Source: a virus | Reading direction: 5' to 3' (one strand) | Virus record (IMG/VR): IMGVR_UViG_3300049489_001303 | Span: 64,001 to 128,000 of that record | DNA: 64,000 nucleotides | In this document: positions 1-63,769 of the stretch, one piece after another | How positions within the stretch are numbered: the first letter of the stretch is position 1 | Layout: the number at the start of each line of letters is the position of its first letter | The notes under the pieces: model-generated | Seen by the model: the letters and a program-made list of their open reading frames with translations, nothing else | Told to the model about the DNA's origin: nothing | Database searches by the model: none | Translations under genes and position numbers: made by a program

Positions 1-90
1 TTGAAAGCTGACTTTGTTACAGGCCCCCTGAGCTTGTGCTCTTCAGGCAGGTGCTGATTGATCAGATAGCGTCCGTAGGTTTCAGACTTT

Positions 91-1515
91 TCAGCCATTG
101 CTGCGCCCTCGGAAGGTATCGTAGTGGAGACCCTGACCCATAGCACTTACCGCGGTAGACCAGCTGACCGGAGAATTCAGACGCTGCTCAGACGCTGTTT
201 GACCTTCAGTGCTATTATCGCTGTCTCTACGCGGACCCGGCGCTACCATCTTCTGCATGGCACCTACCAGATCTTGCACAGCTTCGGTATCCCGGGAAGG
301 TTCATTCTCAGCAGAGACTCCGGCGATGTCCAGACCCATTTTTTGAAACGCAGCTTCGTACCCAAGCTGATAAGCTGATTTTTCCATTGAGGTGCCTCTC
401 TGCAATAACCACTTGTCCCCGTGAGTTCTGAATATAGTATAGCTCTCATTGGAGGATTCGCGCTTGAATTTTACAGTGTCATCCGTGACCTTCTCTACCA
501 GGATAGGCTCTTTAACAACGATCTGTACAGTGCCTTTACCGTATCCCTTACCTATCTGCTGCGGCCCCGCGGCCCCGAAATTCATAGCATAGTGTGATGT
601 ATGTGTCGGAGTCCTGACTGCCAGAAGTTTCTCCCCCGCGGCAGGCAACTTCGCTTTAGGGATAGCCCAGGAGTGCGCATAGGAGGTTCCCGGGTCTACC
701 AGGCGAAGGTCCCAGTGTAGTCCAGCCTTGTCGGCGTGATGTTCCTGGATAACCAGCGTCCATGTCTGCCCTGTACCTTTGGCCGGAAGCGCGTACATCC
801 TTCTGGACCGCGGTACCCCCGGAGCGAACTCTTTCTCTTTCAGGATCCTTGCTACGTCGGCGTGATGGGGCTCGAAGTTGCGGAGTTCCCGTTCAGTCAG
901 TGGCACAGCTACCCGGCCAGTCTCGCTGTTGAGGGAATATTCAGCCCTCAGCGCCCCCATGTTGTGGAACGTGGAGGTGTCGAGCCGTATCTGGTTCGGC
1001 TTTGGGGGCTTCAACACCAGCGGCCCCTTGGCCAGCGGCTTCAAGGTGGCTTCCACAATAGCCCGGACTTTGTCTGTGGGCATCTTCCTGTGCAGATCCC
1101 CGCGCACATGAAACCCGCGCCCACCCGAGTACGTTATCCGGGTGTCTGAAATCTCAGGAACAGTCCCCAGCGCCTGGGCCACCTGCTGAGTCACGCGTTT
1201 CGTCTCATCAAAAGAAACGTCCTTGCCCGGATCTATATCCACCCAGGCTGTCCGTGTGTTCCTCCCTATTGATGGATGGAACTCAGAGTAACGCCGATCG
1301 GTGTACCAAGCCAAATCCTGGGGGTTACTGGTATCACCCTTGGCATCCAGAATCTTGATAGGCTTCCCATCGGCGGCGTTGCGGCGCATGATGAGATTAT
1401 TGTCCCCACGATCCATCACTGCCAGCAGGGGCCTGTTCTGAACCTGTGACAGAATGGCTTCACGTACATGTGGGTCTGAGTAGTACTCAGCGATATCGTG
1501 TTTGGACAACGCCAT
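91..1515 (-). CDS. LigD-like AEP primase-polymerase fused to a LigD 3'-phosphoesterase domain (no ligase domain)
   Basis: AEP motifs WVDIDPG (DxD), YSGGRGFHV (SGxxGxH) and IRLD. Phosphoesterase signature VIQEHHA..GLHWDLRL...AHSWAIPK. The start overlaps the RNAP stop by 1 nt. Confidence 0.85.
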   Translation of the reverse strand: MALSKHDIAEYYSDPHVREAILSQVQNRPLLAVMDRGDNNLIMRRNAADGKPIKILDAKGDTSNPQDLAWYTDRRYSEFHPSIGRNTRTAWVDIDPGKDVSFDETKRVTQQVAQALGTVPEISDTRITYSGGRGFHVRGDLHRKMPTDKVRAIVEATLKPLAKGPLVLKPPKPNQIRLDTSTFHNMGALRAEYSLNSETGRVAVPLTERELRNFEPHHADVARILKEKEFAPGVPRSRRMYALPAKGTGQTWTLVIQEHHADKAGLHWDLRLVDPGTSYAHSWAIPKAKLPAAGEKLLAVRTPTHTSHYAMNFGAAGPQQIGKGYGKGTVQIVVKEPILVEKVTDDTVKFKRESSNESYTIFRTHGDKWLLQRGTSMEKSAYQLGYEAAFQKMGLDIAGVSAENEPSRDTEAVQDLVGAMQKMVAPGPRRDSDNSTEGQTASEQRLNSPVSWSTAVSAMGQGLHYDTFRGRSNG

Positions 1516-4500
1516 CAGTCTTCACCGGTGATACGCACATGAGTTCCCATGTCTATCTTACCTTCACGGTAGGCCTTAGCAGCTTCCCCCTTGTTCTTGA
1601 AAGTCTTTACGGGGCCATGTTTATCCTCGTTAGAGGCATGAGCTATTCCCATGATAGCTTCGTGGCCGGGGAAGGCATATAAGTCGGACTTGTTCTTGTC
1701 CCCATAGAGCAGCTTGCCCATGGTGAGGCCTTTGACCTCTTCCACAGCTTTGGCGCCGACGGGGACGTGAATCATCATTGTATCACCGTCGTAATCAGAA
1801 TTGGTACCCGATTCAACGAAAGGACTGATACGTATGGTTTTCCCGGGTGCAATCTTCGGGTATGCTCCCACCAAGCTGTAGCGGTGGAGCGTAGGGGCAC
1901 GATTCATCAACACCGGCCGCTCAGCCATCTCCTTCAAAAGGATCTGCTTAGCGGCGTGATGATGGGACTTGACCATTTCTTTGGCTTCAAGCGCGGGATA
2001 GCCATTGGCTACAAGACCCTTCACTATGAAATTGGCATACATCTCCCAGAGCATCGATTCAGGCAGACCGATCTCGTTCATACTCAAGGTGTTGTCCGGG
2101 ACGATTGTACCGCGGCCGGCGAGGTCCTGTCTCCGCTTCATAATCTTGGAGTTGAAGAAGCCTTCCTTGGGAGTATTCTCACCTGAGATGTACGTCAGGA
2201 AGCCCTTGTGTTCTCGAGCTTTGGATTTGGATGATATGGGATCATCCGTGCCGTATACAGCCCCAACAGCTTGCTGCAGTGCTGGGCGGAGTTTCTTCTC
2301 CTCGGAGGGCAGGAGGCCAGACTTCTTGAGTTCTTTGAACTGCTTATTCGTGTAGATCAGATCTCTGTACAACGGGTTGATATCCCCGTACATGATCTCT
2401 TGATTACCGCGACCTGGAATAACGGGGCGCATGACCGGAGGCACAACAGGCACTACGCTTATCGTGTAGGCCTTATCCGGAGACAACTTCATCTTCTGCA
2501 AAGCGTGAATGTACTTCAGCTGCTTGACCTCATCGTCCAGAGAGGTGGCCGACTTGGTCTTCATACTGGCCCGGATCTCTTTTTCCTTCTTAACCAGGTC
2601 AAGCTTGCGAAGCTGGTCCTGAATGTGGCGGCCACCCTTTTCTTTGAGAACGTCATCCAGTTCGGTGCCGGTCATCCCGAGCAACCGACGGACGGGCTCC
2701 TTGAAAATAGGGTTCACCACTGGCTCCACCAGCTTGATATGCCCCCAATTGGTCCCTGAGAGTCCGCCCGTAACAGCGGGGTCGAACAGACCACCGGTCT
2801 CGGGGGCGAAGTTCTTGGCTTTAATCAGGGTAGGTTCTTTGATCTCCCCCATCGACATCTCCATGACATCGGCATCGGTGAGAGGTGATGCGCTGAGCAC
2901 GCTCTTATCCCGGGTGACTTTGACTCCAGCACCAGTCAGCATATGCATGAGCTTATCATAAGCGAAAGGCGCCTTAACCGGCGGCGTCGGGTAGCCCAAC
3001 TGAACCGCTCTCCAGTACTCATCGTTCTTCTGGCTTTTAAGTGTCGCAGCTTCCTGCAGAACGTTACGTGCATTGTGGGCTACCAGAGCATCAAACTCCA
3101 TCTTACCATAGGCCTTCGAGCTCTCGGAACCACCCTTGATGGGCTGCTGATTTACGTCGTAACCACCTTCAGTACCGCGGCCACTGAAATTGGACTCAGT
3201 GGTCTTCATGAGCTTAAGGATGTACTGCCTACCCACAAACACTTTGGGGATAGTCTTCCCCGAGCGCGGGTCAAACATATCCTCTTTGTCTTTGATATCG
3301 TGCTTTTTGAGAAGATCCTTGGCCCACTGCACATTGTCACGGCCCGTCAGGTTCTCCACTACGATGGGCTTGCCAGTCTTCTCGACGACCTTGCCCACTG
3401 CGTTCTCTATAATCTGGGAAGGGTTGGCGCGGCTGACAACGCCGGCGGACGTCAAGATGACATCCACGGTGTTACCCGCCTCATCCTTGAGCATCTGGTC
3501 ATCCGGAACTATCTCGGAAACAACCCCTTTACCACCATACCTGTTGGCTAATTTATCCCCGACTGATACAGGTTCCCTGGTTTTAATCGTAATGGCGACA
3601 CGCTTAGGGGTCTTCACCACGTCGATAACTTCGCCCTCGTGCTCATGATCCCAGAGCTGCATCTGCTCACGGTAAGGCTTCACCAGTGATTTATGGAGCC
3701 GCCCCAGCATCAGGTCGTCGGAAGTCAGGGTGGCTTTACGCAGACCGGCTACCAGCGGGTCGCCCGGCTTAACGATGGTTCCCGGTTTGATAAGACCATC
3801 GTCTGTAAGCTTGCTATACTGATCAGCCGTGTACTTGTGTCCGTAGTAGGACCGGTGATGTGCGGCGTGCAAAGACAGGTCGGCGTCCCGGGGAATCACG
3901 ATCTTGTACATGCGCTCAGAGGTCAGCTTCTTGGCGGCACCCTCACTGACAACGATAGCGTCATTGGAGTTGGCACCGTAGTAGGGCATGTAGGCTACAG
4001 ACAAATTCTTACCCAGAGCCATCCGCTGATCTTTGGTGAAGTTTGACTCTGTGAGCTGCGTCTTCGGGGTGACATCGTCACCCACCTGGACGCGGGGGGT
4101 CTGAGTTAAGTGGGTCTTGGACGCCAAGGGGAAGTGCGTCATGTAAGGCACCTTCACAACGTCATCGTCCTTCTTGGCTGTCTTTTCATGCGCTTTATGC
4201 GCCCCGGCTTTGTGCGGCTTGATGTGAATATGGCTGCCGTCAATGTGCACCACTTTACCGTGTATGGGGGAGCGAGCATTCGTGTGCCAGGCCAGCTCCT
4301 CTTCCATCGGTCGGCCATTGGGGCCCATAACCTGCACATACGGAGCCTCTCTGTCCACCAGCCCCAGAGCCTGGGTCTGCATCTTGGAGCCCATCACCGA
4401 TCGGTTCCCCTGCAGAGACTCGATGAAGGGTATCAGGTTAGTGGTCGGGCCGTAGGTGTATGACGTGTGCGGCATCTGATACTTAACCTTCGAGGCATGC

Positions 4501-5900
4501 ACATGGCGAATCTGGCCATCCTGCAGGGCATCAACCATGCCCTTCAGCTCCTGATTGGGGAACGCCACAATCTCATCCTGCATGGCGCCGGCACGGACAG
4601 CCCCCAGCTTACCCGTCTTCACGTCGATAACCGGGACGTAGATATTGTTGTCCTTGTCCTTGGAAACACCCAGAGCCGCACGGAGGTCAACACCAGCACG
4701 GAAGGTGTCTGGGGTTCGGAAAGGGTCCAGTGCGCCGATGTGGGTGGGGTGCTTCTGCCGGGCTTCCATGGGGATAGCCCGATCGGTACCGATGCCACCC
4801 TCTCCCATAGCAGTCACGCGCACCGCGGAGTCCCAGAGGTCCATGGGATTCGTCTGTGTTGGGACAGTCACCAGCTGTGAGCTGTTGATAAAGCGGAGGA
4901 TGCCCCCGGTGAAAGGCCCCGCCGGCAGAGCCTTGCGGAGCTCGGGAGCTGTTTCCATTTTGAGAATAGCTTTACGCCCGACATCACGAGCATCCAGCTT
5001 GATACGCTCTTTGAAAAAGTCATCCGGCCCGTAAATGCCCTTGAAGTCCAGGTTGTCGCGGTCATCGGGATCTGCCGAGTTACGGTAGATGTCGATCAGT
5101 TTCTTGGAAGAGTCGAGAAGAGCTTCCGGAGTAACCGACTTATGTTCCTTGCCCAGAGTTTTAGAGTTAACGTGCGGATCCATACCTTGCGTCGCATAAC
5201 GTGCAAAAATCTCCTTAGCCATAGCCTCGGTATCAGTAGACTCCCGGTGGTATTCCGGAACCATCTTCTTGTACAGAGCGGCGACAGCCTTGTCCTGTTT
5301 ATGTCCTGTTTCTTTCTCATTCTGGGCGGCCAATCGGTCTCCCCAGGCACGCGAAATGTCCTGTTGAGAAACCCCACCAGCGCGGAGGATCGGATACAAC
5401 GGAATCTTGGCCGAGGCATACTCGAGCTGAGGTGTACCCTTGACCGGATCCATCACGATATTGAAGTTGGAACCTGTGCGAGTGTTGAAGTTGGACTCCA
5501 GAACACCATTGGCCCGCTTGCGGGTATACACCCCGGCCTTGGGGCGCACCTGGTTGGAGATGGAATATTCGTTACCCCCCACGATGATGGTGTGGCGATC
5601 AGTAAACCACGGGATCCGGGCCAGAGTGAAGTTGGGCACCTTGTCCACAACCTTACCTTCAGCGTCCTTCATGATCAGCGTTCCGCGGACGTTCTCATAG
5701 AGGGTGTCCCCCTGGAGGATAGCTGCCTTCTGCTCCTCGGGGCTGTAGTCCTTCTCCTGATAGTGCAGGTCCTGAACCTCAAGGGACTTCGAGCGGGACT
5801 TGATAGGAAAGGACTCCTCCAACCCCTCAACAACCTTCTTACGAATCTGCTCCCGGCGTTTCTCCGGATGGTCAATTATCCTTGTCAGTTCTTCGGTCAT
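1515..5900 (-). CDS. DNA-directed RNA polymerase: beta subunit fused to the N-terminal (catalytic) half of beta'
   Basis: Beta motifs HPTHIGALDPFRTPD, LIPFIESLQGNRSVMGSKMQTQA, LGKNLSVAYMPYYGANSNDAI, GDKLANRYGGKGVVS and QQPIKGG..YGKMEFDAL. Beta' motifs GGLFDP, WGHIKL, VPVVPPVMRP, PVLMNRAPTLHR and catalytic NSDYDGD (cf. NADFDGD). SD GGAGG upstream. Confidence 0.95.
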   Translation of the reverse strand: MTEELTRIIDHPEKRREQIRKKVVEGLEESFPIKSRSKSLEVQDLHYQEKDYSPEEQKAAILQGDTLYENVRGTLIMKDAEGKVVDKVPNFTLARIPWFTDRHTIIVGGNEYSISNQVRPKAGVYTRKRANGVLESNFNTRTGSNFNIVMDPVKGTPQLEYASAKIPLYPILRAGGVSQQDISRAWGDRLAAQNEKETGHKQDKAVAALYKKMVPEYHRESTDTEAMAKEIFARYATQGMDPHVNSKTLGKEHKSVTPEALLDSSKKLIDIYRNSADPDDRDNLDFKGIYGPDDFFKERIKLDARDVGRKAILKMETAPELRKALPAGPFTGGILRFINSSQLVTVPTQTNPMDLWDSAVRVTAMGEGGIGTDRAIPMEARQKHPTHIGALDPFRTPDTFRAGVDLRAALGVSKDKDNNIYVPVIDVKTGKLGAVRAGAMQDEIVAFPNQELKGMVDALQDGQIRHVHASKVKYQMPHTSYTYGPTTNLIPFIESLQGNRSVMGSKMQTQALGLVDREAPYVQVMGPNGRPMEEELAWHTNARSPIHGKVVHIDGSHIHIKPHKAGAHKAHEKTAKKDDDVVKVPYMTHFPLASKTHLTQTPRVQVGDDVTPKTQLTESNFTKDQRMALGKNLSVAYMPYYGANSNDAIVVSEGAAKKLTSERMYKIVIPRDADLSLHAAHHRSYYGHKYTADQYSKLTDDGLIKPGTIVKPGDPLVAGLRKATLTSDDLMLGRLHKSLVKPYREQMQLWDHEHEGEVIDVVKTPKRVAITIKTREPVSVGDKLANRYGGKGVVSEIVPDDQMLKDEAGNTVDVILTSAGVVSRANPSQIIENAVGKVVEKTGKPIVVENLTGRDNVQWAKDLLKKHDIKDKEDMFDPRSGKTIPKVFVGRQYILKLMKTTESNFSGRGTEGGYDVNQQPIKGGSESSKAYGKMEFDALVAHNARNVLQEAATLKSQKNDEYWRAVQLGYPTPPVKAPFAYDKLMHMLTGAGVKVTRDKSVLSASPLTDADVMEMSMGEIKEPTLIKAKNFAPETGGLFDPAVTGGLSGTNWGHIKLVEPVVNPIFKEPVRRLLGMTGTELDDVLKEKGGRHIQDQLRKLDLVKKEKEIRASMKTKSATSLDDEVKQLKYIHALQKMKLSPDKAYTISVVPVVPPVMRPVIPGRGNQEIMYGDINPLYRDLIYTNKQFKELKKSGLLPSEEKKLRPALQQAVGAVYGTDDPISSKSKAREHKGFLTYISGENTPKEGFFNSKIMKRRQDLAGRGTIVPDNTLSMNEIGLPESMLWEMYANFIVKGLVANGYPALEAKEMVKSHHHAAKQILLKEMAERPVLMNRAPTLHRYSLVGAYPKIAPGKTIRISPFVESGTNSDYDGDTMMIHVPVGAKAVEEVKGLTMGKLLYGDKNKSDLYAFPGHEAIMGIAHASNEDKHGPVKTFKNKGEAAKAYREGKIDMGTHVRITGED

Positions 5901-5921
5901 GCATTCCTCCGCGGCACACTA

Positions 5922-5950
5922 AGTATAGAGCCTGGGGCCGTAGATGTAAA
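5922..5950 (-). promoter_or_regulatory. sigma70-like promoter upstream of the RNAP gene
   Basis: Minus strand TTTACA-N17-TATACT, 21 nt upstream of the ATG. Confidence 0.6.
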
Positions 5951-6036
5951 ACTAAAACAAGAGGCGGGATTTGGTATAAGATAGTAGACAGCACCCACAG
6001 GATAATCTTGTGGCGGCAACCCTACGGAGGTGTACC

Positions 6037-6201
6037 ATGTGTACACTGATGCTTCTCGCCGCTTTGGCGGCACCCGTTCCCGCACAGTCCCCTGCGCTCG
6101 AAACCCCCTCCGCCCAGGTGGAAACAGCGAAGATGAAACTTCGCAGCAACCCCATGTTCTGGCCCGCCTGGATGTTTCGGCCCTACACCCTTGAGGTGTG
6201 A
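6037..6201 (+). CDS. small hypothetical protein (54 aa) with a signal-peptide-like N-terminus
   Basis: GGAGGT SD 5 nt before ATG 6037. Sequence begins MCTLMLLAALAAPVPAQ. Candidate extended -10 TGGTATAAG at 5972-5980. Confidence 0.45.
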   Translation: MCTLMLLAALAAPVPAQSPALETPSAQVETAKMKLRSNPMFWPAWMFRPYTLEV

Positions 6202-6329
6202 AGCCGCTCGCCTCCTGGATGTAAAACAGCCGGTCACCTGTGTGATAGGCTGTTAACACCCAGGAGGTACTTACATGAAATTTGAGCCTCTGACACCTGC
6301 TATCCCGCCCATCAAACGGTGATAGCTTT

Positions 6330-6360
6330 GAAAGCCTGGAGCAATCCGGGCTTTCTTTTT
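6330..6360 (+). terminator. rho-independent terminator
   Basis: GAAAGCCTGGA-GCAA-TCCGGGCTTTC hairpin followed by TTTTT. Confidence 0.75.
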
Positions 6361-6362
6361 GC

Positions 6363-6914
6363 TCAGTCTTTTTTGAAAGCCTGTTCGACGTTGGGAGGGT
6401 AGATCTGATTTCTTTTGCGTTCTTCCATCAGTCTCTTTATGCGGCGAGCCTCGTCGGGATCCACTTCCATCCATTCCACATGGACAAAGCGAGCCCCCTC
6501 GGTGGGGAAGGGTTCTTTGGAAACGATGGTGCAGTCCCCCTTGAGGTACTTGTCCATGACAGCCTTATATTCTTTGGCCTGGGTGTGGGGGCATTCGTAG
6601 TCGCCATCTTTGACAGGCAGGATGGCATGACCTGAAGCCAACGCATTCTGGCAGCGGGCGCAGGCTTCCCAGTCACGCCATATACAGAACACTTTGCTGT
6701 ACGCCTGATAGGAGCTCTCAACAGAAGCCTTCTCGGGGGGAGTATCTTTCCGAATATGGGGGTTAACCATAGTATCCAGATCGGTTTCCACCGAGAACAT
6801 GGGCCCCAGTTCCAGGGTGTCACCCCCCGGCCCACCCTGGGAAGGCGCGGGTTGGCTGCGGGCGTTATTGGCAATCGCCAGATAGTTGAAGCCTGAGGAT
6901 GTGGGTTGTGGCAT
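6363..6914 (-). CDS. hypothetical protein with CxxC motif
   Basis: 183-aa ORF directly downstream of the portal; CARC...ECPH. Confidence 0.65.
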   Translation of the reverse strand: MPQPTSSGFNYLAIANNARSQPAPSQGGPGGDTLELGPMFSVETDLDTMVNPHIRKDTPPEKASVESSYQAYSKVFCIWRDWEACARCQNALASGHAILPVKDGDYECPHTQAKEYKAVMDKYLKGDCTIVSKEPFPTEGARFVHVEWMEVDPDEARRIKRLMEERKRNQIYPPNVEQAFKKD

Positions 6915-6922
6915 GGTTTATC

Positions 6923-8683
6923 TCACCCCTGTTGCGGCTGACCCGGCCCCTTAGCCTGCTGCTTAAGAGCTTGAGTCTGCTGCTGCTGTGCTGTTTCCAA
7001 CCGTTGAACAACCACAGCATACATGACAAGGTCCTCCGTTTGCAACTGTTTAAGGCGCGATTTGCGTTCACCCTGTTCAAGACCGAGCAACTGTTGAACA
7101 ACCTGGTCGGCCTGAGAGATGACCTGCTGCTGGTTGTAACCCGAGGGACTCTGCTGCGCTTCGGCGTCAACGCGGATCTGCTCAACCATACTGTTCTGGA
7201 TGTCCCTGACAGCACGCTGAGTCTCAATTTCAGAGCGGGATCTATCCAGGGTTTCCTGCTGAATTTTATCACGCTCGTTGTCCAGATCCAGCGTCAGGAG
7301 CTCAGCCATGGTCTGGTCAGAGATCACCTTGACACCGCTCTGATAGCCGCCCTGCCACAGATTGGCCAGAATCTGCTTGGTGGAGAGGTCGTCCGTCATG
7401 CGGAACTTCGCCATACCCACTTCAAGCTTCTCCCACCCCAGAAACGTAGCGCATTTGTCGTCCACCCACTGCAGGAGGTCCAGCAGGTCATTCACATGGG
7501 TTTCGAGTTGGTTCTCAATGAGGCGTAGGGTAGCTTCCATTCCAGAGCCCGTCAGCCCACCATAGATGAATTCTTGCGGGATACCCAAAGCCGAAATGAT
7601 AGCCTTCTCCGCTTCTTGAATTTCACCCAGGGTAAGCAGTGCGCGGCCTTGACCACCAATCTGCACAACGCCAACAGGCACCGGAGCAAACATCATATGC
7701 AGCGGGTCTTTGCGCCACGCAGCCATGTTGGAAACCATGTTGTCTTTCCACTTGGAAAGATTCATCTGGGTTACCGGGTCGCCCACGCCGGAGGCCTGCG
7801 CCGGGTGTATCACGCGGAAAGGCACCAGGTGGTCCAGGGCGATCGCGGTGTTTGCCTTACGCAGAATCGCCGTGTAGTGGAACAGCGACATGACCGAAAG
7901 CAGCGGGGGAAGGCCCCACTGGGGATTGATACCGGCTGGGCCGCCCATCTTCATATGGAAGACGACACCCTTGGAAAACTTGAACTTTTTGTTGGTCTTG
8001 ACGGCTTCCAGGAAACCAATGGGGAGTGTGTCAATCAGGAACTTGTGTCCACTGTTGATGCGCGTGATTATGTCTCTCGGGATGGTGTAGTAGTAGACGG
8101 ACTCCCCCGTGATAGGGTTGTATTCAATATCCATCTGCTTCGGATCCCACCGAATGAAATTGACGTGCTTGGGAGAGGTCAGCTTCTTGTCAATGATGTT
8201 GTCTTTACCTACCCGGCTCTTCTTATTGCAGCTCGGGCAGTCAAAGATGAACTTCAGTTCCTGAATGTTGAACGTGTACGTCAGCGTTTCGATATTGGTC
8301 AGGGTCTGACAGTGGGGGCACCTCAAAAACCGGATGAACGGTTGGTACATGGTTAAGAAGGCGTTCCCGTACACATACTTGTCGAGAGTCGCTTTGATCA
8401 ACAATTCCCGGGCACGCAGTGTCTTTTCCAGAAGGTCTTTATGCTGGCGACGAAGCGACACGTTGCTTGTGTCGTAGGTCACTTCTGTGATAGGATACTC
8501 ACCAAACTTACGGAGGGCTGAGTAGATTTGAGGGCTATTGTAAAAGAGGTACTCGCACCACTTGAAGAGATCCTTCAGCTTTTTTGGTGTGAACGACTGC
8601 GTGAAATCCTGATAGGGGCTGGGGTGGGTGGCAATATTCTGATTAGTCCCCAGCAAACTGTATGTCTCATTTATAGCCATCAA
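6923..8683 (-). CDS. portal protein with zinc-ribbon insertion
   Basis: Portal-like segments DKYVYGNAF and VFHMK...WGLPPLLSV...ILRKAN..IALDHLVP, plus LGIPQEFIYGG and a Q-rich C-terminus. CPHC...CPSC insert. Confidence 0.7.
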   Translation of the reverse strand: MMAINETYSLLGTNQNIATHPSPYQDFTQSFTPKKLKDLFKWCEYLFYNSPQIYSALRKFGEYPITEVTYDTSNVSLRRQHKDLLEKTLRARELLIKATLDKYVYGNAFLTMYQPFIRFLRCPHCQTLTNIETLTYTFNIQELKFIFDCPSCNKKSRVGKDNIIDKKLTSPKHVNFIRWDPKQMDIEYNPITGESVYYYTIPRDIITRINSGHKFLIDTLPIGFLEAVKTNKKFKFSKGVVFHMKMGGPAGINPQWGLPPLLSVMSLFHYTAILRKANTAIALDHLVPFRVIHPAQASGVGDPVTQMNLSKWKDNMVSNMAAWRKDPLHMMFAPVPVGVVQIGGQGRALLTLGEIQEAEKAIISALGIPQEFIYGGLTGSGMEATLRLIENQLETHVNDLLDLLQWVDDKCATFLGWEKLEVGMAKFRMTDDLSTKQILANLWQGGYQSGVKVISDQTMAELLTLDLDNERDKIQQETLDRSRSEIETQRAVRDIQNSMVEQIRVDAEAQQSPSGYNQQQVISQADQVVQQLLGLEQGERKSRLKQLQTEDLVMYAVVVQRLETAQQQQTQALKQQAKGPGQPQQG

Positions 8684-8764
8684 ACGCTCCTTGGAAATTT
8701 TCTAACACATGAGATTTTAAATGAAACGTCTCTATATAGCAACAAACATCGAGGTGACCGCTAA

Positions 8765-10792
8765 ATGCTATTTGACTTTACCAGAGTGAACCACACTCCA
8801 GTGCTGTTCGTCAAGACAGATAATCCGGAGTTTGGGCGTATCCTGGGTGCTACGCAGAGCAGCACCATCAAAGGTTGGCTCTACCCGGCATATCTCCCCT
8901 TTCTCCCCAAGGTGCTCGCCGACATCGGGATCCTGGACAAACAGGCGCAGTATACCCCCGCCGCGGAGGCCTACCTGAAAGAGGTCCGAAGCTACGAGCA
9001 GTGGCGGGATGTAGTTGCAAACACACATTTCCCTACACGTAGCCGTGACCATCAGCTGGATGGCACCGCCGAGCTGCTGACGTACCACCGCTGGATGCTG
9101 CAGTGGGGCATGGGGGTCGGCAAAACCAAGATCGCCATAGACACCATCAATATCCTCAGAACGCCGACGCTGGTTCTGTGTCCCCGTGTGGCGGTGGACA
9201 ATTGGATGCTGGAGATCGACAATCATGGGGGTGGTCAGCTGAGGGCCATGACCCTCAAAGGTGCCAGCAAAGAAGCCAAGATGAAAGAGCTGCTGGAGAT
9301 GCCCCTGCATGACGTGGTGATCACCACCTATGACACGGCGAGGCTCTACGGCGTCCCATCGATACCTCCGGCGGCGGTCACTCTGCTGAAGAACGCCCAT
9401 CGAGCACTCCACCCTGATTTGAGGACAGCATTGATGTCCTTGAACGACGCCCAAGCGCAGGAGCGCCTGATCACAGAGTGGCTGGCCGGGCGCAACAACG
9501 CCGAAGTCATCGCTGAGATCCGCCACCTCAGAGAAGGGCGTAGTCACCAGTGGCTGATGGACTGGGACTACCAGACGCTCATCTGTGACGAGTCGCACCG
9601 TATCAAACGCATCCAGAGTAGCCGGACTGCCGCAGTGCTGCAGATGTCGGCCAAGGCATCCCGGAGGATCCTGCTCTCAGGAACCCCTATCCAGGGCAAT
9701 CCTCTGGATGCATTTCCCCAGCTCAAGTTCCTGGCCCCCTATATAGTCAAGGAAGACTATAGGAAGTTCAAACAGAAGTACACCGTGGCATCCCCCTACA
9801 ACGAGAATGCTGTGGTGGGATACAAGAACCTGCACATCTTGAACAGGCTTATCAGCAGTATCAGCAGTAAGCGAGAACTGGAAGAGTGTCTCAGCCTCCC
9901 CGAGCAGGTCTTGACCAAGGTGAACTACAGCTTATCCCCCGCCCAGAAGCGTGCCTACAACCAGGCAGTGGAAGCCTGGATTGTGGATCGAGCCGATCGG
10001 AGTGCTCAGGATATTGTCAATGCCGCAAGCCGGATAAGCAAGCTACTACAGATCTGCAGTGGTTTCGTCTACACCCAGACTGACACGGGGTGCTGCGACA
10101 CTTGCCCACATTTGACTACATGCATCGAAGGAAAGATAACCCCCGGAACACCTCGTTGTTTCAGAAAGGAAGAGATTGGCGAAATCCCACGTGAGACTCA
10201 ATGGTTTGACCCTAACCCCAAAATGGAAGCCCTTAAGGATCTACTGGAAGACATCATTCCTACAAACAAGGTCATTATCTGGGCCGTCTTCACCGCTGAG
10301 TTGGATCTGGTGGAAAAACTCCTACAGAGGGAGAAGATAGGGTACGTTCGAGTAGACGGCTCCAACACAGGTAAGGTCGCTAATATGGCCGCGAAATTTA
10401 ACAGTGAACCTGAGTGTATGGTATATCTGGCCCAGATCAGCACTGGCATCAGTATCACGCTTAACGCTGCTAAATACATGATCTACTACTCTCGCAACTG
10501 GAGCCCTGACGACAGGGAGCAGTCTATGGCCCGTAACCATAGACTGGGGCAGACACAGACAACAGGTGTATATGACCTGTGTGCTTTTGGAACAGTAGAG
10601 GCCCAACAACTTACCGCTTTAAACTGTAAACAGAATATCACCCAGTTATTGACAGATAAGGTTGACTGTCTGGTTTGTTCTCGCTATAGTGCCTGTGTAA
10701 ATACAGGAATAGAACCGTGGGATGACGGATGCATCTACAAGAAAAGCGTAAGCAAAGTCACGGCCAGAGCTGAATCTTTAGAGGAGGATTGA
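8765..10792 (+). CDS. SNF2-family (SF2) helicase/ATPase
   Basis: GMGVGKT, DESH, LSGTP, KVIIW, GISITL, QSMARNHRLGQ. Confidence 0.92.
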   Translation: MLFDFTRVNHTPVLFVKTDNPEFGRILGATQSSTIKGWLYPAYLPFLPKVLADIGILDKQAQYTPAAEAYLKEVRSYEQWRDVVANTHFPTRSRDHQLDGTAELLTYHRWMLQWGMGVGKTKIAIDTINILRTPTLVLCPRVAVDNWMLEIDNHGGGQLRAMTLKGASKEAKMKELLEMPLHDVVITTYDTARLYGVPSIPPAAVTLLKNAHRALHPDLRTALMSLNDAQAQERLITEWLAGRNNAEVIAEIRHLREGRSHQWLMDWDYQTLICDESHRIKRIQSSRTAAVLQMSAKASRRILLSGTPIQGNPLDAFPQLKFLAPYIVKEDYRKFKQKYTVASPYNENAVVGYKNLHILNRLISSISSKRELEECLSLPEQVLTKVNYSLSPAQKRAYNQAVEAWIVDRADRSAQDIVNAASRISKLLQICSGFVYTQTDTGCCDTCPHLTTCIEGKITPGTPRCFRKEEIGEIPRETQWFDPNPKMEALKDLLEDIIPTNKVIIWAVFTAELDLVEKLLQREKIGYVRVDGSNTGKVANMAAKFNSEPECMVYLAQISTGISITLNAAKYMIYYSRNWSPDDREQSMARNHRLGQTQTTGVYDLCAFGTVEAQQLTALNCKQNITQLLTDKVDCLVCSRYSACVNTGIEPWDDGCIYKKSVSKVTARAESLEED

Positions 10793-10793
10793 C

Positions 10794-11234
10794 ATGCAGA
10801 TAGCACTTACCCTACAGGAGTTAGCTCAGATCCTGGAAGCTCATTGGGGAATTGAAGTACAGCCCGAGAACCTAACACTGTCTCCGGACGCCGGGGAAAT
10901 TGTCATCAAAGATGCGTCGTTCAAGATGTTGTTGCAGGGGGCGGATAAGCCTGCAACTCCTGCTGCCAGTCGCAGTAAGGCCGCCTTGCCCCCCAGAGAG
11001 CTTCTGGTCGCTCCTGCCCCGACAGTAGCTACCACAGACGATGACGATGATTTTGGTGAGGATGAAGAGAACACGCCTTTGACTATGGAAGATATTCTGA
11101 ACATAAGCAAAACGGCAATGGTTAACAAGAAGGTGCTGACGCATCCCGAGATTTCTCGGGCACTACGTAACAGCTATGAAACCGACGAACCGCCAGAAAT
11201 GGACGAAGCCGAGTTAGCGGCTAACAGGAGATAA
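10794..11234 (+). CDS. hypothetical acidic protein
   Basis: SD GAGGAGG; tightly packed in the operon. Confidence 0.65.
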   Translation: MQIALTLQELAQILEAHWGIEVQPENLTLSPDAGEIVIKDASFKMLLQGADKPATPAASRSKAALPPRELLVAPAPTVATTDDDDDFGEDEENTPLTMEDILNISKTAMVNKKVLTHPEISRALRNSYETDEPPEMDEAELAANRR

Positions 11235-11236
11235 CT

Positions 11237-12124
11237 TTGACCGAAGAAACCAAAAAACCGGAGCGTGAAGGCCTCGTATTCCCCTATCCCGAGGGTGACG
11301 ACTTCTTTGATCCGGGTATTCCCAAGGGCGTTATATCTCCCTCAGGGTTTACGATGTATCGCAAGTGCCCGAGACAGTTTCAGTATGCCTACGTCCTGGA
11401 AATGAAGAAACCTCCAGCGGTAGCTATGCTCAAAGGTACCGCTATACATAAGGGGGCTGAAGTTGTGCACAAGCACACCATCGAGCACGGCAGTCTCCTG
11501 GGGATGGATGCTGCTGTACAGGCAGTGGATGACCGGTGGGAAAAGGAAGTGGGAGATATCGAGGACTGGGATGATGGCGACGGCAACATCCTGGCCGCCG
11601 GTGTTATCAAAGATATCACGATCTCCAACTTCAGGGCTTACTACGTTCAGGCTGTCCCCCTGATTAAGCCTGTGGCTGCTGAGAAGCCCTTCGCCATGAA
11701 GATCGGGACTGTCCCTATCCGTGGCGTGATTGACCTCATTGACTCCATTCCGGGAGAATACTCCCTCGAGGACGACCCGGAGCAACCCCCACCCAGCATC
11801 GAAGTGGTTGCCGACCTGAAAACCACAAAGATGCGGTGGGCGCAGCAGAAGCTCGACCACGATGTGCAGATGACGATCTACTCCTATGTAGAGAACACTC
11901 CGCAGATCCGTGTAGACCTCCTGCTGGATGCTAAAAAGGGTGCCACTTACTGTCCCATGCGCACGACGCGTTCTCGGCAAGAGAAGAAGGTGATGGTAGA
12001 GGACCTGGAAGAGACAGTGGACCTGATTAAGAAAGGTGTATTCCCGCGCTGTGATCCCACGTCGTGGGCTTGTACACCTAAGTTCTGCGGCTATTACGAA
12101 ATGTGCCGCGGTAAGAAAGGCTGA
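11237..12124 (+). CDS. PD-(D/E)XK nuclease, Cas4/RecB-like
   Basis: ISPS..YRKCPRQF, GTAIH, RGVIDLI, VADLKT, QMTIY, and a C-terminal Cys cluster. Confidence 0.85.
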   Translation: MTEETKKPEREGLVFPYPEGDDFFDPGIPKGVISPSGFTMYRKCPRQFQYAYVLEMKKPPAVAMLKGTAIHKGAEVVHKHTIEHGSLLGMDAAVQAVDDRWEKEVGDIEDWDDGDGNILAAGVIKDITISNFRAYYVQAVPLIKPVAAEKPFAMKIGTVPIRGVIDLIDSIPGEYSLEDDPEQPPPSIEVVADLKTTKMRWAQQKLDHDVQMTIYSYVENTPQIRVDLLLDAKKGATYCPMRTTRSRQEKKVMVEDLEETVDLIKKGVFPRCDPTSWACTPKFCGYYEMCRGKKG

Positions 12125-12129
12125 TAAGC

Positions 12130-13314
12130 ATGAGACCCCTGACCGATTACCTGAAATTGTCCAAAGTGGCTTTTTGGAAAAAAGTGGATGCTGAAGGAGC
12201 TGCAGCGGAAACGCGCTTCCTCGCAATGTGGAACAGGCTGGACGAGGACATCCCCTCTCAGGAGGATGCCGCCCAGGCCCTCGACGACTTGTTCCTGTAT
12301 TCGCACAAGCGGATCCGGGAGCACAGCAAAGTCGTCGCCAACAACTATCCGACCACTCAGGTAACCAAGAATCGGCTCGGGTCTCAAAAGGCGTTGTGGT
12401 GGGTTGACCACTTCACCGCGGGCATCAGCGAATGGTCCACACTGAATTGGTTCAGCGCTGGAAAAGTAAAGAAGAAGAATGGCTCCATGGGGCTCGCCGG
12501 CGCATCCACTCACTTTGTGATGGGGTACGGCGGTGAGCCCTTTTATATCATCCCCCTGATGCATGGCGCCTGGCATGAGCCGCGGAAAAACAAAGATGGT
12601 CTCAGCATCGAGCATGTCAACTCTGGTGGTCTCAGTCTGAAGGATGACGGCTGGCATTACTGGGCCAGAAAGATGCCGACAGAGCTTGTCCAGGAGCTCC
12701 CCCCAACGCCCCTCGGCGAACCGTTCAAAGGTCTCAAGGTGATGCAGCCCTTCACTTTGGCGCAGATCATTGCGAACATCAAACTTAAACGGCTCGTTAT
12801 CGCCGCTCTGCCCAGTGTCCTGACCCTGGAAAGAATGTCAGAGCATGACGACTGGCGGGAAGGCAAAACAGATATGGGCCCCCTCTGGCCCCGGGAAGAT
12901 TGCAACCAATCAGCGTTTGCCGTAGAGCCTCTTCCGGAGCTTTCTTTTTTGCAGAAGGAAGGCTACACCGGGGGCAACATCAAAGCCTTCGAAATTTTTG
13001 ATGGGAGGATCGACGATAGTGATGTGGATCTTTCTGCCAATCCGTCCTACGGTTTCGACGCCCCGACGCACGATGATGATGAGGATGAGAAAGACTCCCC
13101 CATCTGCAAGAACCCGACGGTAGAGGATCTGCAGAAGAAGCTCTACGCCAAGGGCTACATGCTGACGGTTGACGGTATCTACGGTAAAGAGACCACTGAG
13201 CAGGTAAAGCGCTTCCAGGCAGATACCAACCGCAAAATCAATGACATCAAAGCCCGTCTGAAAGTAGACGGCATTGCCGGCCCTCGAACGATGGCCTGTT
13301 TGTTCAAGGAGTAA
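12130..13314 (+). CDS. N-acetylmuramoyl-L-alanine amidase with C-terminal peptidoglycan-binding domain (putative endolysin)
   Basis: VDHFTA, ASTHFVM, AWH, SIEHVN and SEH...KTDMG. PG_binding_1-like VDGIYGKET..VKRFQ...LKVDGIAGPRT. Confidence 0.85.
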   Translation: MRPLTDYLKLSKVAFWKKVDAEGAAAETRFLAMWNRLDEDIPSQEDAAQALDDLFLYSHKRIREHSKVVANNYPTTQVTKNRLGSQKALWWVDHFTAGISEWSTLNWFSAGKVKKKNGSMGLAGASTHFVMGYGGEPFYIIPLMHGAWHEPRKNKDGLSIEHVNSGGLSLKDDGWHYWARKMPTELVQELPPTPLGEPFKGLKVMQPFTLAQIIANIKLKRLVIAALPSVLTLERMSEHDDWREGKTDMGPLWPREDCNQSAFAVEPLPELSFLQKEGYTGGNIKAFEIFDGRIDDSDVDLSANPSYGFDAPTHDDDEDEKDSPICKNPTVEDLQKKLYAKGYMLTVDGIYGKETTEQVKRFQADTNRKINDIKARLKVDGIAGPRTMACLFKE

Positions 13315-13320
13315 AATCAC

Positions 13321-13746
13321 ATGGATGTAGTAGTAACCAAGGAATGCCCCCGTTGTGGAAAGAAAAGTGATGTGGCTGTTGCTCTGGAAGTGGCTGTTGC
13401 CATGGATCAGAAACGTAAGGAAAAGGAGAACGAAACAGCTGCCCTGGAGCTGGACCTGGCTGAAACGCTGGGCAATATGCAGAATAAACCCCTGTTACTG
13501 GTAGCGGCGCTCAACGCTGATGGCGCAACCTACACCGTTAAGGCCATGAGTGATCTCTGCTCCGGCCAGCGCAGTTGCACCTCACGGATCACCACGCTGC
13601 TCAATGAAGTGTTCGTGCCTGTGAAGCAGGTTGTGAAGAAGAAAGAAGTTCCCAATGAGCGTGAGATGACAGACCCCCCGGCAATGACACTGGAAGAACT
13701 CCGTGCGGGCGGACCTGCACGAATGAGTGAGGATGACAATGGATAA
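13321..13746 (+). CDS. hypothetical protein, putative Zn-binding
   Basis: CPRC near the N-terminus and a later C-x5-C. Confidence 0.6.
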   Translation: MDVVVTKECPRCGKKSDVAVALEVAVAMDQKRKEKENETAALELDLAETLGNMQNKPLLLVAALNADGATYTVKAMSDLCSGQRSCTSRITTLLNEVFVPVKQVVKKKEVPNEREMTDPPAMTLEELRAGGPARMSEDDNG

Positions 13747-13903
13747 GTACGGTGTAGAGACGCCCCTGCCGGCGGAGAAGGTGGCAGAAGAGAAAGAAAA
13801 AGAACCTGTGGCACGCTGCCACCGTTGCGGGGCAGTAGTTCGGAATGAGGGTAATACCCTGTTCTGCCCCAACTGTGGCACTGAACCATTTGAGGCACCG
13901 TAA
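13739..13903 (+). CDS. small zinc-ribbon protein (54 aa, not in the ORF track)
   Basis: Translated by hand: MDKYGVETPLPAEKVAEEKEKEPVARCHRCGAVVRNEGNTLFCPNCGTEPFEAP*. GAGGA upstream; it fills the gap between flanking genes. Confidence 0.75.
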   Translation: MDKYGVETPLPAEKVAEEKEKEPVARCHRCGAVVRNEGNTLFCPNCGTEPFEAP

Positions 13904-13906
13904 GCC

Positions 13907-14275
13907 ATGACAGATGTGGACAAGCTCAGAGTAATACGTGCCCTATACATTATGGCATACACCTCGGAGAAGAGCCTTGTCCCGATCGCTGTAGAGTTGT
14001 TTCACCTGTTGGGGGACATTCTGGAAGGGACGCCCATCAGTGAGCTGGAGCTGCACAGCATCGATCGCAAGGAATTACTTTTGACCCTTGAGGAATTGTC
14101 GCCTCAAGAAAAGGCAGGTAACGATGGTCACGACTGTGAAACTGAATCAGATACGTGTGACTCACGATTGGAATCGGGAGGATGTGGGCGACATCAGCAG
14201 TCTGGTAACGTCCATAAGGGAAAACGGCCAGCTGCAGCCTCTGCTGGTATGGCAGGATTCGTCGAAGAAGCATAA
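13907..14275 (+). CDS. hypothetical protein
   Basis: Starts 3 nt after the previous stop. Its 3' ~150 nt overlap the ParB gene. Confidence 0.45.
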   Translation: MTDVDKLRVIRALYIMAYTSEKSLVPIAVELFHLLGDILEGTPISELELHSIDRKELLLTLEELSPQEKAGNDGHDCETESDTCDSRLESGGCGRHQQSGNVHKGKRPAAASAGMAGFVEEA

Positions 14276-15017
14276 GCAGCCCGTCTACTACCTGATAGAC
14301 GGCCGCCGAAGATTCGCGGCGCTGCAGATGCTGAAGAAGGATCCATTGGTGGTTATGAGCAGCGCTCAGGATTCCGCCTCAGCCTTTCTGCAGTCCATGG
14401 CTGCAAACCTGGTGAGGGAGGGGAACACCGTATACGAGATCTCCCGCTCCTTCGACCAGCTGGTCACTGAGTACGGTGTGCTGTATGACGACATCGTGAA
14501 GACCTGTGGTAAGACAGCCGGCTATGTGAGCCAGCACGTCACGGCTATACGTGTGGCTCGCAGAGATCCCCAGTTACTGGAGATGTTCAAAGCGGGTGGG
14601 ACTTCCCTCTACGTGTTCCGCTCACTGTGCAAGCTCGACGAGCATGCGGACAGGCCACAGTTCAAGCGTATGGTCAAGCTGCTTGCCGGCGGAGCCACTT
14701 CGGCTGAGGTAGGTCTGCAGGTGGACCAGTACCTGAAGAAGAAAGAGCAGCGCCTCCAGAACACGGCGAAACGCACGGGGGTCAAACTGCCACCGAAGAC
14801 AGGTAAAGTCGCTGCCGACGCTATCCGCAGGAAGTCTTTGACGGACTACCATTCGACTGAGGTCCGCAAGACTATCAAGAAGCTCTCGGTGGCCGATTTG
14901 ATCAAGAAGGCATCTCAGTATCAGGACAAGTTCATCGCCGCGAAGAGTGTCAACATGCAGCGCTACTACCAGGGCTGCATAGCTGCTATTGAGTGCGCCC
15001 TCGGCATCGCTGAGTAA
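14124..15017 (+). CDS. ParB/Srx-family N-terminal domain protein with HTH
   Basis: SLVTSIRENGQLQPLLV...YYLIDGRRRFAA, ANLVRE, and HTH-like IVKTCGKTAGYVSQH. Start reassigned to ATG 14124. Confidence 0.8.
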   Translation: MVTTVKLNQIRVTHDWNREDVGDISSLVTSIRENGQLQPLLVWQDSSKKHKQPVYYLIDGRRRFAALQMLKKDPLVVMSSAQDSASAFLQSMAANLVREGNTVYEISRSFDQLVTEYGVLYDDIVKTCGKTAGYVSQHVTAIRVARRDPQLLEMFKAGGTSLYVFRSLCKLDEHADRPQFKRMVKLLAGGATSAEVGLQVDQYLKKKEQRLQNTAKRTGVKLPPKTGKVAADAIRRKSLTDYHSTEVRKTIKKLSVADLIKKASQYQDKFIAAKSVNMQRYYQGCIAAIECALGIAE

Positions 15018-15023
15018 CTCCCT

Positions 15024-16043
15024 TTAATACCCCAGGCTATCTCCGTGGCGAGATCGGCGCTTCATCTCCCGCTTCAGCATCTTCACGGCTTTCTCTTTGA
15101 TCTGCCGGACTCTTTCTGGAGTGATCTGGGTGATAGCAGCCAATTGGGGCAGGGTCTTATTGGCGTTTTTGCGCTCTTCTTCGGGGATATTGAAGTACCC
15201 CAGCACAATGTAGAGATCTCGCTTTGATTTGCACACCCGGCGCAGAGTCTGCCGCACCATGAAAGACGCATCATCGCTGATAGCAGTATCTTCGGCAGTC
15301 CCCACAGTGCTGATGTGTGTGTCATCTACCTGCACGGCCGGATGCATTATCGCCGCATCATCGTTGAGAGGGGCTTCAAAGTTGTGACCTCCGGGCGACG
15401 TGCAGGGCAGGGAAGCGTCACAGGCCTCTGGAGTCTCACTGCGTAAGCCGCAAATAGTGCACACGTACCGCCCCTCTTTATATGACTTCCTTAAGTCCCT
15501 TTGCCGGTGGGTGGGTATATGCACCAGGTGTGAGGCATGGATCTCATCCAGCATCTCTTTACGGATCCACCACTCCGCATAGGTCAGGAAGCGAGTGCTG
15601 CGGTTCATGCTGAACTTATCCAGAGCTATCACTAACCCCACGTTGCCCGCCGACACCAGCTTCTGAAAATGCTCAGAATCCTGTGTTATTTTTTTTGCCC
15701 GGCGGATAACAAAGCGGAGGTTGGCCTGGATGATCTTTTCCCGGGCTAACAGGTCTCTGGAGGAGCCACATTTGGGGCAATATACCGGGGGTGCCGAAAT
15801 TTCAAATTTGTCCCCACATCTGGTACAAGCAGTTGCCTTATCCCGACTTTCTTCGGGAGTGGGCTCCCCGCACGTGGGGCAGTTACTTACAAAGGCTTTT
15901 GGCTCAAACAGGTGCGTGCAGTTGGGGCACGTGTAGTAGCGTCGCAAAAGCTCCCGCTCTTCAGCCGCGGTGAGGACCTGATGTTTACCGACTTCATTGT
16001 AGTACTGTGTATAAACCCGATCCCGTGTACTATCGTGTAGCAT
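15024..16043 (-). CDS. sigma-70 family RNA polymerase sigma factor with zinc-ribbon insertions
   Basis: Region 1.2 YYNEVGKHQVLTAAEERELL. Region 2 IIQANLRFV...GNVGLVIALDKF...RFLTYAEWWIR. Region 4 TLPQLA...TPERVRQIKEKA. SD GGAGGT before ATG 16043. Confidence 0.9.
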   Translation of the reverse strand: MLHDSTRDRVYTQYYNEVGKHQVLTAAEERELLRRYYTCPNCTHLFEPKAFVSNCPTCGEPTPEESRDKATACTRCGDKFEISAPPVYCPKCGSSRDLLAREKIIQANLRFVIRRAKKITQDSEHFQKLVSAGNVGLVIALDKFSMNRSTRFLTYAEWWIRKEMLDEIHASHLVHIPTHRQRDLRKSYKEGRYVCTICGLRSETPEACDASLPCTSPGGHNFEAPLNDDAAIMHPAVQVDDTHISTVGTAEDTAISDDASFMVRQTLRRVCKSKRDLYIVLGYFNIPEEERKNANKTLPQLAAITQITPERVRQIKEKAVKMLKREMKRRSRHGDSLGY

Positions 16044-16100
16044 GCAGACCTCCGTGTAGCCGTTTATCCTCCAAATATGATTGAACATCGCACAATTAAT

Positions 16101-16129
16101 TAGACATTGCAAGTGTGCTTCGCTATCAT
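16101..16129 (+). promoter_or_regulatory. sigma70-like promoter for the replication gene block
   Basis: TAGACA-N17-TATCAT in an AT-rich divergent intergenic region. Confidence 0.55.

Positions 16130-57633: not shown

Positions 57634-63769
<6,136 letters not shown>

Follow-up and report, generated by a model that had tools for sequence, protein, structure and literature searches.

A phage RNA polymerase with beta fused to the N-terminal part of beta' and a separately encoded beta' C-terminal part

We analysed a 64,000-nucleotide stretch of the genome of an uncultured phage (IMG/VR record IMGVR_UViG_3300049489_001303), hereafter the window, which covers bases 64001-128000 of a single virus record of 170,144 bp with a CheckV completeness of ~95%. 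On its minus strand lies a gene, P0001, whose product joins a bacterial-type RNA polymerase beta subunit to the N-terminal part of beta' (beta'-N), while the remaining C-terminal part of beta' (beta'-C) is encoded by a separate gene, P0006, that lies 1.4 kb downstream. As judged from the predicted genes, this fused-and-split layout is common to hundreds of phages. We propose that the two chains form a sigma-dependent phage RNA polymerase with a derived split, a coupled operon and probable virion carriage, a joint reading to which we assign a probability of about 0.75.

The fused chain and the separate beta' C-terminal chain

The open reading frame (ORF) listing and its translation gave P0001 as a single ORF of 1461 amino acids (aa) with an ATG start at window 1515-5900 (-). 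Pfam placed the domains of beta first (Rpb2_2 at residues 160-285, Rpb2_3 at 348-399 and Rpb2_6 at 595-924, E 4e-44), followed by those of beta' (Rpb1_1 at 1108-1240 and Rpb1_2 at 1319-1394, E 2e-23). A sequence search of the PDB aligned residues 23-1013 without interruption to residues 30-1075 of the 1104-residue Synechocystis beta (E 2e-61), which is an insertion-poor form, and residues 1086-1457 to E. coli beta' 178-550. We then aligned a profile of 13 family members to E. coli beta and beta'. In the profile the beta part extended to residue 1338 of the 1342 residues of E. coli beta, and ~13 residues later beta' started at E. coli ~28, a direct join with no long linker. Relative to E. coli beta, about 130 residues were missing from the 157-421 region and 932-1051 had no counterpart; we take these two gaps to be the sites of the E. 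coli lineage-specific insertions SI1 and SI2. In alignment, the beta part is a complete, insertion-free bacterial beta.

The catalytic residues of both subunits were located. The beta catalytic loop GDKLANRYGGKGV, invariant in the family, was kept at residue 781, in a segment aligned to E. coli beta 1051-1128, and corresponds to the basic catalytic loop GDKMAGRHGNKG of the E. coli beta double-psi barrel. A flap-tip-like helix (DDLMLGRLH, at residue 728) aligned to E. coli beta ~897-910, and the clamp coiled-coil was retained in the segment aligned to E. coli beta' 260-310. The motif NSDYDGD occupied residues 1367-1373 (family consensus NADYDGD), with D1369, D1371 and D1373 invariant in the 13 family members. 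The last aligned position of the family profile was E. coli beta' 551, before the rim helices, the bridge helix and the trigger loop. Since beta and beta'-N are on one chain, both double-psi barrels lie on one polypeptide. The original prediction, a note written from the letters of the window, had described just such a chain, with the beta motifs followed by the beta' motifs through NSDYDGD, both barrels together and an end before the bridge helix and trigger loop, and our searches agree with it on each of these points; the translated chain also ends with the residues quoted there. Of the two zinc sites of beta', only the second is retained, on beta'-C. E. coli beta' 64-173 is replaced by ~36 residues in P0001, and the first zinc ribbon is missing, as the 1461-aa chain has no cysteine at all.

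A whole-genome search with Rpb1_5 found beta'-C as one open frame just left of the window. Its likeliest start is an ATG at window 98. The original prediction was therefore right that beta'-C (600 aa) is a separate subunit and only partly right in placing it outside the window, as its start codon is inside and the remainder lies beyond the left edge. P0006 matched bacterial beta' from the rim helices on (phmmer E 3e-37, profile E 1e-68), aligning to E. coli beta' 572-938 and 1188-1308. It carries the rim helices, the SGARGN motif, the bridge-helix region, the second zinc site (Cys 215, 271, 278 and 281, all four invariant in the family) and a trigger loop, EPLTQ..AKHGG, with an invariant His. 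An AlphaFold model of beta'-C alone, of only moderate confidence with a predicted local distance difference test score (pLDDT) of 64 and a predicted template modelling score (pTM) of 0.38, served only as fold confirmation; in a Foldseek search with this model, all 50 of the 50 listed matches were bacterial RNA polymerase complexes, nearly all of them to the beta' chain (E ~1e-20).

Between the two polymerase genes lies P0002, which encodes a primase-polymerase (PrimPol) with a phosphoesterase domain. Its start overlaps the stop of the fusion gene by 1 nucleotide (nt) (TGATG), and the ATG of beta'-C overlaps the P0002 stop by 8 nt. On the basis of these overlaps, the fusion gene, P0002 and beta'-C form a tightly coupled operon. 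The C-terminal tail of P0002 (from residue 383) resembles the small proteins that precede beta'-C in distant relatives. This tail contains a helix-like motif, Y.LG...A...G[IL] (residue 383; window 331-372), and a second copy is found at the N-terminus of the gene just after beta'-C (genome 62247-62294, 1.7 kb left of the window), so that the motif flanks beta'-C. The small ORFs that precede beta'-C in relatives begin with this motif, as does the gene that follows beta'-C, usually in a form ending in K-x-A. We considered the motif as a genome-wide tag and rejected this idea, as there are just two clear copies in this genome.

The position of the cut in beta' was defined on the E. coli numbering. 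The fused chain ends ~4 residues past the position aligned to E. coli beta' 550-551 (~554), and beta'-C starts at E. coli ~570, two residues before 572 (the TTVGR motif); ~15 E. coli residues at the cut have no phage counterpart. The cut is at the identical residue in 59 of 59 related loci as well as in Salmonella phage Arash and Vibrio phage D69, and the N-terminus of beta'-C is fixed across relatives as M-x(1-6)-T[LF]G. Positions 444-558 of two cyanobacterial gamma chains (of 624 and 626 aa) align with the same residues of the phage chain, and the gamma chains continue 66-69 residues beyond, so the phage cut at ~554/570 does not coincide with the RpoC1/RpoC2 junction. The first 130 residues of beta'-C and a profile of its first 60 matched actinobacterial beta' only, with no cyanobacterial junction. 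Since no junction alignment to the cyanobacterial chains was obtained, the cyanobacterial position, ~E. coli beta' 615-620, is coordinate arithmetic that assumes collinear proteins. Both cuts are located 'before conserved region E', i.e. between regions D and E (PMC10895346). Because they share this inter-region, the earlier description of the split as near the cyanobacterial boundary is fair, with the qualification that the phage site is a different one, ~45-65 residues earlier.

Table 1. Coordinates of the polymerase genes, their neighbours and the regulatory elements (window positions unless stated otherwise)
Feature	Position	Strand	Basis or remark
Beta part of the fusion P0001 (residues 1 to ~1002)	2895-5900	-	Pfam, PDB search, profile
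Beta'-N part of P0001 (residues ~1003-1461 and stop codon)	1515-2894	-	Pfam, PDB search, profile
Beta'-C, P0006, 600 aa; first 33 codons in window	1-98 (genome 62296-64098)	-	Rpb1_5 search
P0002, 474 aa, LigD-type primase-polymerase and LigD 3'-phosphoesterase	91-1515	-	Pfam
Sigma-70-like promoter match TTTACA-17 nt-TATACT, 10/12	5922-5950	-	21 nt before ATG
Clade-wide element CTTATACCAA, consensus yCAtaTtCTTwTACCAA (core CTTwTACCAA)	5971-5990	-	Upstream-region comparison
P0004, small protein	6363-6914	-	Conserved neighbour upstream of the polymerase gene
P0003, portal-like protein	6923-8683	-	Conserved neighbour upstream of the polymerase gene
SNF2-family ATPase	8765-10792	+	Divergent from the portal gene; position kept in relatives
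Sigma A, P0127, at most 362 aa	15024-16112	-	Sigma-70-family regions 1.2, 2 and 4
Sigma B, P0128, 242 aa	46785-47513	-	Sigma70_r3 above the Pfam cut-off, weak region 2 match

Relatives and the origin of the split

The fused chain is widely distributed. At least 120 protein clusters with 50-79% identity share the ~1450-aa architecture, on contigs of up to 196 kb, and many of these clusters are interrupted by inteins. In IMG/VR, 205 related loci were retrieved with an alignment as the query; a single-protein query gave nothing useful. There are four cultured carriers, Salmonella phage Arash and Vibrio phages D69, D148 and D181. GenBank annotates both Arash genes as 'subunit beta' and those of the Vibrio phages as 'hypothetical protein'. 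A survey of 185,579 species genomes found the gene only on nine contigs in metagenome-assembled genomes (MAGs) of unrelated phyla, five of 71-179 kb and four of 3-42 kb.

Gene order was compared in 80 of the 205 IMG/VR loci, and the distance to beta'-C in the 59 of them that reached far enough. The conserved order was sigma, SNF2 (opposite strand), portal, small gene, fusion and beta'-C (same strand as the fusion). Nearly every related locus has the part of this order that runs from portal through small gene to polymerase, and so do Arash and the unsplit relatives described below. Beta'-C was 0.55-6 kb downstream and never contiguous with the fusion in all 59 loci. PrimPol occupied the gap only in the nearer subclade (at least 57% identity); elsewhere the gap held one to three small ORFs.

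Several variants of the two chains were seen among the relatives. A fusion subclade of ~1600-1990 aa with 52-55% identity (P0092-P0125) has an inserted PF18823 domain, and some of its members also have PF00719, presumably both pyrophosphatase families. Such a polymerase would carry, within its own chain, a domain for the removal of its by-product. Inteins are frequent in both chains (PF14528 and PF14890, and PF01079/PF05203 in beta'-C), with carriers including P0007, P0013, P0017 and P0130-P0155. In Vibrio phages D181 and D148 the fusion gene is fragmented around a homing-endonuclease gene. One beta'-C (L061:15080-18388) has 1103 aa instead of the usual ~600, by a large insertion or extension.

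Three of the nine MAG contigs (L091, L093 and L095) encode beta, beta'-N and beta'-C in one ORF of 1983-2072 aa, preceded by the same portal and small gene. These unsplit ORFs are collinear with both phage chains across the cut, with 3-6 residues' difference at the junction. A search for longer relatives of beta'-C gave ~28 single-chain clusters (~2030-2100 aa, longer with inteins) with E values of 1e-86 to 1e-39, beating every bacterial beta'. Because the single-chain relatives run straight across the cut, the split looks derived, and it looks to have arisen by insertion of a gene into a single-chain enzyme. The identical cut residue in Arash, D69 and the main clade favours one split of an ancestral single-chain enzyme.

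In a maximum-likelihood tree of beta' (28 rows, LG+G4, quick search), all fused enzymes fell into one group with support 100, with L091 and L093 basal. This group was apart from the five bacterial phyla and from the enzymes of two phages with separate subunits, Rhizobium phage TM21B and Cobetia phage Carin-5. With five phyla, the bacterial sampling is far too thin for a 'deep-branching' verdict, and the tree contained no sequences from the study of the mReC phages discussed below. In this tree the fused enzymes do not nest within a cellular bacterial clade, in line with the viral lineage of the original prediction.

Sigma factors, regulatory signals and virion carriage

Across the 170-kb, ~95%-complete genome, no match at E<=10 was found to alpha (PF01000, PF01193) or omega (PF01192), and the hidden Markov model (HMM) controls for these subunits succeeded in 14 of 14 genomes. 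The beta of P0001 is the only one that the genome encodes. The genome search for beta'-C and alpha that had been proposed with the original prediction thus gave beta'-C and no alpha, and the absence of an alpha gene noted for the window extends to the rest of the genome. The phage genome therefore lacks the alpha dimer and omega of a bacterial core.

On the other hand, the window contains two sigma-70-family genes, which had been overlooked before. Over residues 114-347, sigma A shares 27-29% identity with RpoD/RpoS; in most relatives its gene and that of the polymerase are ~9 kb apart. The sequences YAEWWIR in region 2.4 and ERVRQ in region 4.2 are, we assume, close to the sigma-70 motifs and, because of this closeness, sigma A would be expected to read -10/-35-type promoters. 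Sigma B sits inside the tail/baseplate block. Together with these genes, the sigma docking sites of the core, i.e. the clamp coiled-coil and the flap-tip helix, are present, and binding of sigma to the core is predicted. Sigma A has an insertion of two CxxC...CxxC zinc ribbons that separates region 1.2 from region 2, and a third Cys cluster is in region 3. The phage sigma carries two, perhaps three, zinc ribbons in the non-conserved region, and the polymerase has lost a beta' zinc ribbon.

Upstream of P0001 there are two sequence elements (Table 1). The sigma-70-like promoter match is followed by a GGAGG ribosome-binding site. A TATACT-like element recurs near the start codon in many relatives, and in some lineages the hexamer almost abuts the ATG, which would leave the mRNA with hardly any leader. 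The clade-wide element CTTATACCAA is ~30 nt farther upstream. Of 71 non-identical relatives, 61 have a match to its consensus no more than 150 nt from the polymerase start, compared with 2.9% of random windows of the same loci; some lineages have this element alone, 25 nt before the ATG. The exact 10-mer has 4 copies in this genome against ~0.3 estimated for a random 10-mer. The conserved element may be a second promoter of the polymerase operon or an operator, and the two elements may represent two promoter classes, possibly matching the two sigma factors. In 83 intergenic regions k-mer enrichment was weak (TATAAT 3.5-fold, 7 sites), and no genome-wide promoter code was derived.

Three further exact copies of CTTATACCAA are at genome 164281 (+), 164347 (-) and 165876 (-), 36-38 kb past the right end of the window; two of these three have the extended form TGTTGTTAAC-NN-CTTATACCAA. 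Two of the three are arranged as a divergent pair in the intergenic region near 164.3 kb, adjoining the gene of a secreted, highly repetitive Asp/Ser/Thr/Ala protein. The ~460-nt gap upstream of P0001 (window 5901-6362) also holds two small (+) ORFs, each with a strong ribosome-binding site, one from ~6037 (~57 aa, signal-peptide-like) and the other from ~6273 (15 aa), followed by a plus-strand hairpin and T-run at 6330-6355.

Two lines of evidence are suggestive of a polymerase that is carried in the virion. In particles of phage Arash, Gp206, the counterpart of P0001, was detected with 3516 spectra, at the top of the particle proteome and above the major capsid protein, together with Gp216 (1210 spectra) and the sigma factor Gp10 (467 spectra) (PMC10585845). 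In addition, the fusion gene lies between the portal gene and head-associated genes, and this position in the head module is fixed across the clade.

The remaining genes of the window are those of a tailed phage. They encode a baseplate-J protein, collagen-repeat fibres, a family-A DNA polymerase, SNF2, PD-(D/E)XK enzymes, amidase and M15 lysis proteins and the portal-like protein. For the SNF2-family ATPase a RapA-like helper role is possible, an idea that comes from PMC7824862. Two very large proteins of 926 and 1743 aa with collagen triple-helix repeats (window 52887-55667 and 57630-62861, both on the minus strand), one of them also with a concanavalin-like lectin domain, are likely tail fibres. 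No Rfam family was found within window 1-20000, and PF00940 (T7-type RNA polymerase) had no match here, with none in the control genomes either. A search of sequencing runs found the full stretch in one run only, a freshwater-sediment metagenome that is a possible source, and small shares of it in three lake-water runs; no RNA run holding the stretch was listed.

The proposed enzyme and its relation to known systems

We propose the following model. Chain 1 would consist of all of beta, head-to-tail with the clamp and catalytic barrel of beta', and chain 2 of the remaining beta', which holds the second zinc site as well as the rim helices, bridge helix and trigger loop; together they would reassemble a standard active centre. 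The covalent join of beta and beta' probably takes over the part that the alpha dimer and omega play in assembly. Promoters would be chosen by the phage's own sigma-70-family factors, for which the docking sites on the beta' clamp helices and the flap tip are kept. An ancestral single-chain beta::beta' enzyme, still present in sister lineages, would have been cut at a surface loop by gene insertion, the inserted gene being PrimPol/phosphoesterase in this subclade. The three genes would form a single expression unit with coupled translation, preceded by a sigma-70-like promoter and an upstream element specific to the clade. Probably carried in the virion as well, the enzyme would start transcription independently of the host polymerase.

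Several observations weigh against this model. The activity of the enzyme across the family is predicted from sequence alone, and the bridge helix, although present, is divergent and was modelled at low confidence. The genome may encode a small, unrecognised substitute for alpha or omega, as absence by HMM cannot exclude a divergent analogue. In the tree, the unsplit L095 nests inside the split group on a long branch, and a single split clade is weakly rejected by the approximately unbiased (AU) test (p 0.023); if the split happened once, L095 would be misplaced or re-fused, and the proposed order of events is tentative. As to carriage, the permissive Arash proteome takes in 116 of the 272 proteins, ribonucleotide reductases among them, and gradient purification is not mentioned for the particles (PMC10585845), so contamination by abundant proteins of the infected cell is possible. 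Finally, neither polymerase chain starts with the leader-like motif of the neighbouring small proteins.

Among the alternatives, it is quite conceivable, at somewhat under even odds, that the split has no function. It would then be a tolerated scar of cargo insertion at a permissive loop, and the two-chain enzyme would behave like the one-chain enzyme. The collinearity of the unsplit relatives across the cut, to within 3-6 residues, and the variation of the gap content between lineages, from 0.55 to 6 kb, are in keeping with this idea. However, the cut position and at least one intervening gene are kept in lineages down to 33% identity, which is compatible with selection but does not prove it.

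A more far-reaching version of the model is tentative and, in our judgement, more doubtful than not. It would posit a large, world-wide clade of tailed phages with a capsid-loaded, injected, sigma-70-dependent, minimal two-chain RNA polymerase free of alpha and omega, which derives from a single-chain beta::beta' enzyme opened at one surface loop when capsid-cargo genes inserted there. The gap would be a standing landing pad for such cargo, and the zinc ribbons of sigma may replace the lost beta' ribbon.

It is unlikely, in our estimate, that the enzyme is active and yet unpackaged. It would then be made after infection for middle and late genes, and the host RNA polymerase would read the early genes, including the polymerase operon. 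The near-consensus sigma-70-type promoter directly before the operon fits such a scheme, as do the lack of a recognisable loading leader on either chain and the metabolic enzymes in the permissive Arash proteome. However, Gp206 is the most-detected protein of the Arash particles, ahead of the major capsid protein, and the gene is fixed beside the portal gene across the clade. Cellular DNA or a chimeric assembly, the two doubts that the original prediction had raised, is hardly credible: although nine related loci are in bins labelled bacteria or archaea, those contigs are phage-sized and from unrelated phyla, a normal beta' is found elsewhere in all five of the bins searched, the window has portal, baseplate, tail-fibre, DNA polymerase and lysis genes, and the same architecture recurs in the clusters, in the IMG/VR loci and in four cultured phages.

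The proposed two-chain enzyme shares features with several known polymerases. In Helicobacter and Wolbachia, rpoBC has the beta C-terminus covalently joined to the beta' N-terminus, as in the phage. Those enzymes are cellular, unsplit, have a full-length beta' and still use alpha2 and omega, whereas in the phage a stop follows residue 1461 and beta'-C is a separate gene. Arash Gp206 and Gp216, with sigma Gp10 (OQ632216.1), have the same layout, Gp206 having 1525 aa and 34.7% identity over the full length. Arash and Vibrio phages D69, D148 and D181, with genomes of ~180-187 kb, have a separate beta'-C of ~606 aa, the order portal-small gene-polymerase and a sigma factor of their own. Arash differs in the spacer between its two genes, which spans 4.8 kb and contains opposite-strand genes but no PrimPol. 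The fusion and the split are not mentioned in the Arash paper (PMC10585845). The unsplit enzymes (L091, L093, L095, P0129, P0132 and others; 26-33% identity) have the same join, streamlining and upstream portal and small gene, but they are single ORFs of ~1980-2100 aa with no cut and no intervening gene.

In cyanobacteria and plastids, beta' is likewise cut between regions D and E into RpoC1 (gamma) and RpoC2 (PMC10895346, PMC10120043). As in the phage, clamp and catalytic barrel fall to the N-half, and rim helices, bridge helix and trigger loop to the C-half. Unlike in the phage, the junction is ~45-65 residues farther, beta is separate, and the enzyme includes alpha and omega and has a huge SI3 insertion. 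The phiKZ/AR9-type RNA polymerases of jumbo phages are also phage-encoded, without alpha and omega, have beta' in N and C chains and exist in a virion-carried form (PMC7598289, PMC7824862). They differ in having beta in 2-3 chains, no sigma-70-family factor and far more divergence from the bacterial enzymes, whereas here beta is whole and fused and there are two sigma-family genes. Reviews of jumbo phages, PMC7824862 among them, cover only phiKZ-type enzymes without sigma.

The original prediction had noted that deep-branching polymerases of tailed phages were known from metagenomes and that this lineage might be among them. The mReC phages are tailed, some of ~180 kb, with bacterial-like beta and beta' apart from those of cells (Weinheimer & Aylward 2020, PMC7481178). 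However, their architecture is different: the enzymes listed have a separate beta of 997-1487 aa and a complete beta' of 902-1303 aa (PMC7481178), whereas this genome has no such pair of genes and no match to PF07068 (Gp23 capsid), the mReC marker. The selection rule of that study, a beta' of at least 800 aa carrying NADxDGD (PMC7481178), would presumably have excluded the present layout for the most part. In the literature searched, we found no published description of a fused-and-split enzyme.

Bacterial RNA polymerase is thought to need the alpha dimer for assembly of beta and beta', and omega for folding of beta'. The phage genes point to a widespread enzyme with a bacterial active centre and true sigma factors that has neither alpha nor omega and exists in one-chain and two-chain forms. 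With Salmonella phage Arash, one member is in culture, so that what such an enzyme minimally needs for assembly and for sigma-dependent initiation can be tested directly. The finding would correct the annotation of hundreds of database entries ('subunit beta', 'hypothetical protein'). If the model is true, it would add a third independent way for phages to bring their transcription machinery, beside the N4/crAss-type and phiKZ-type virion polymerases.

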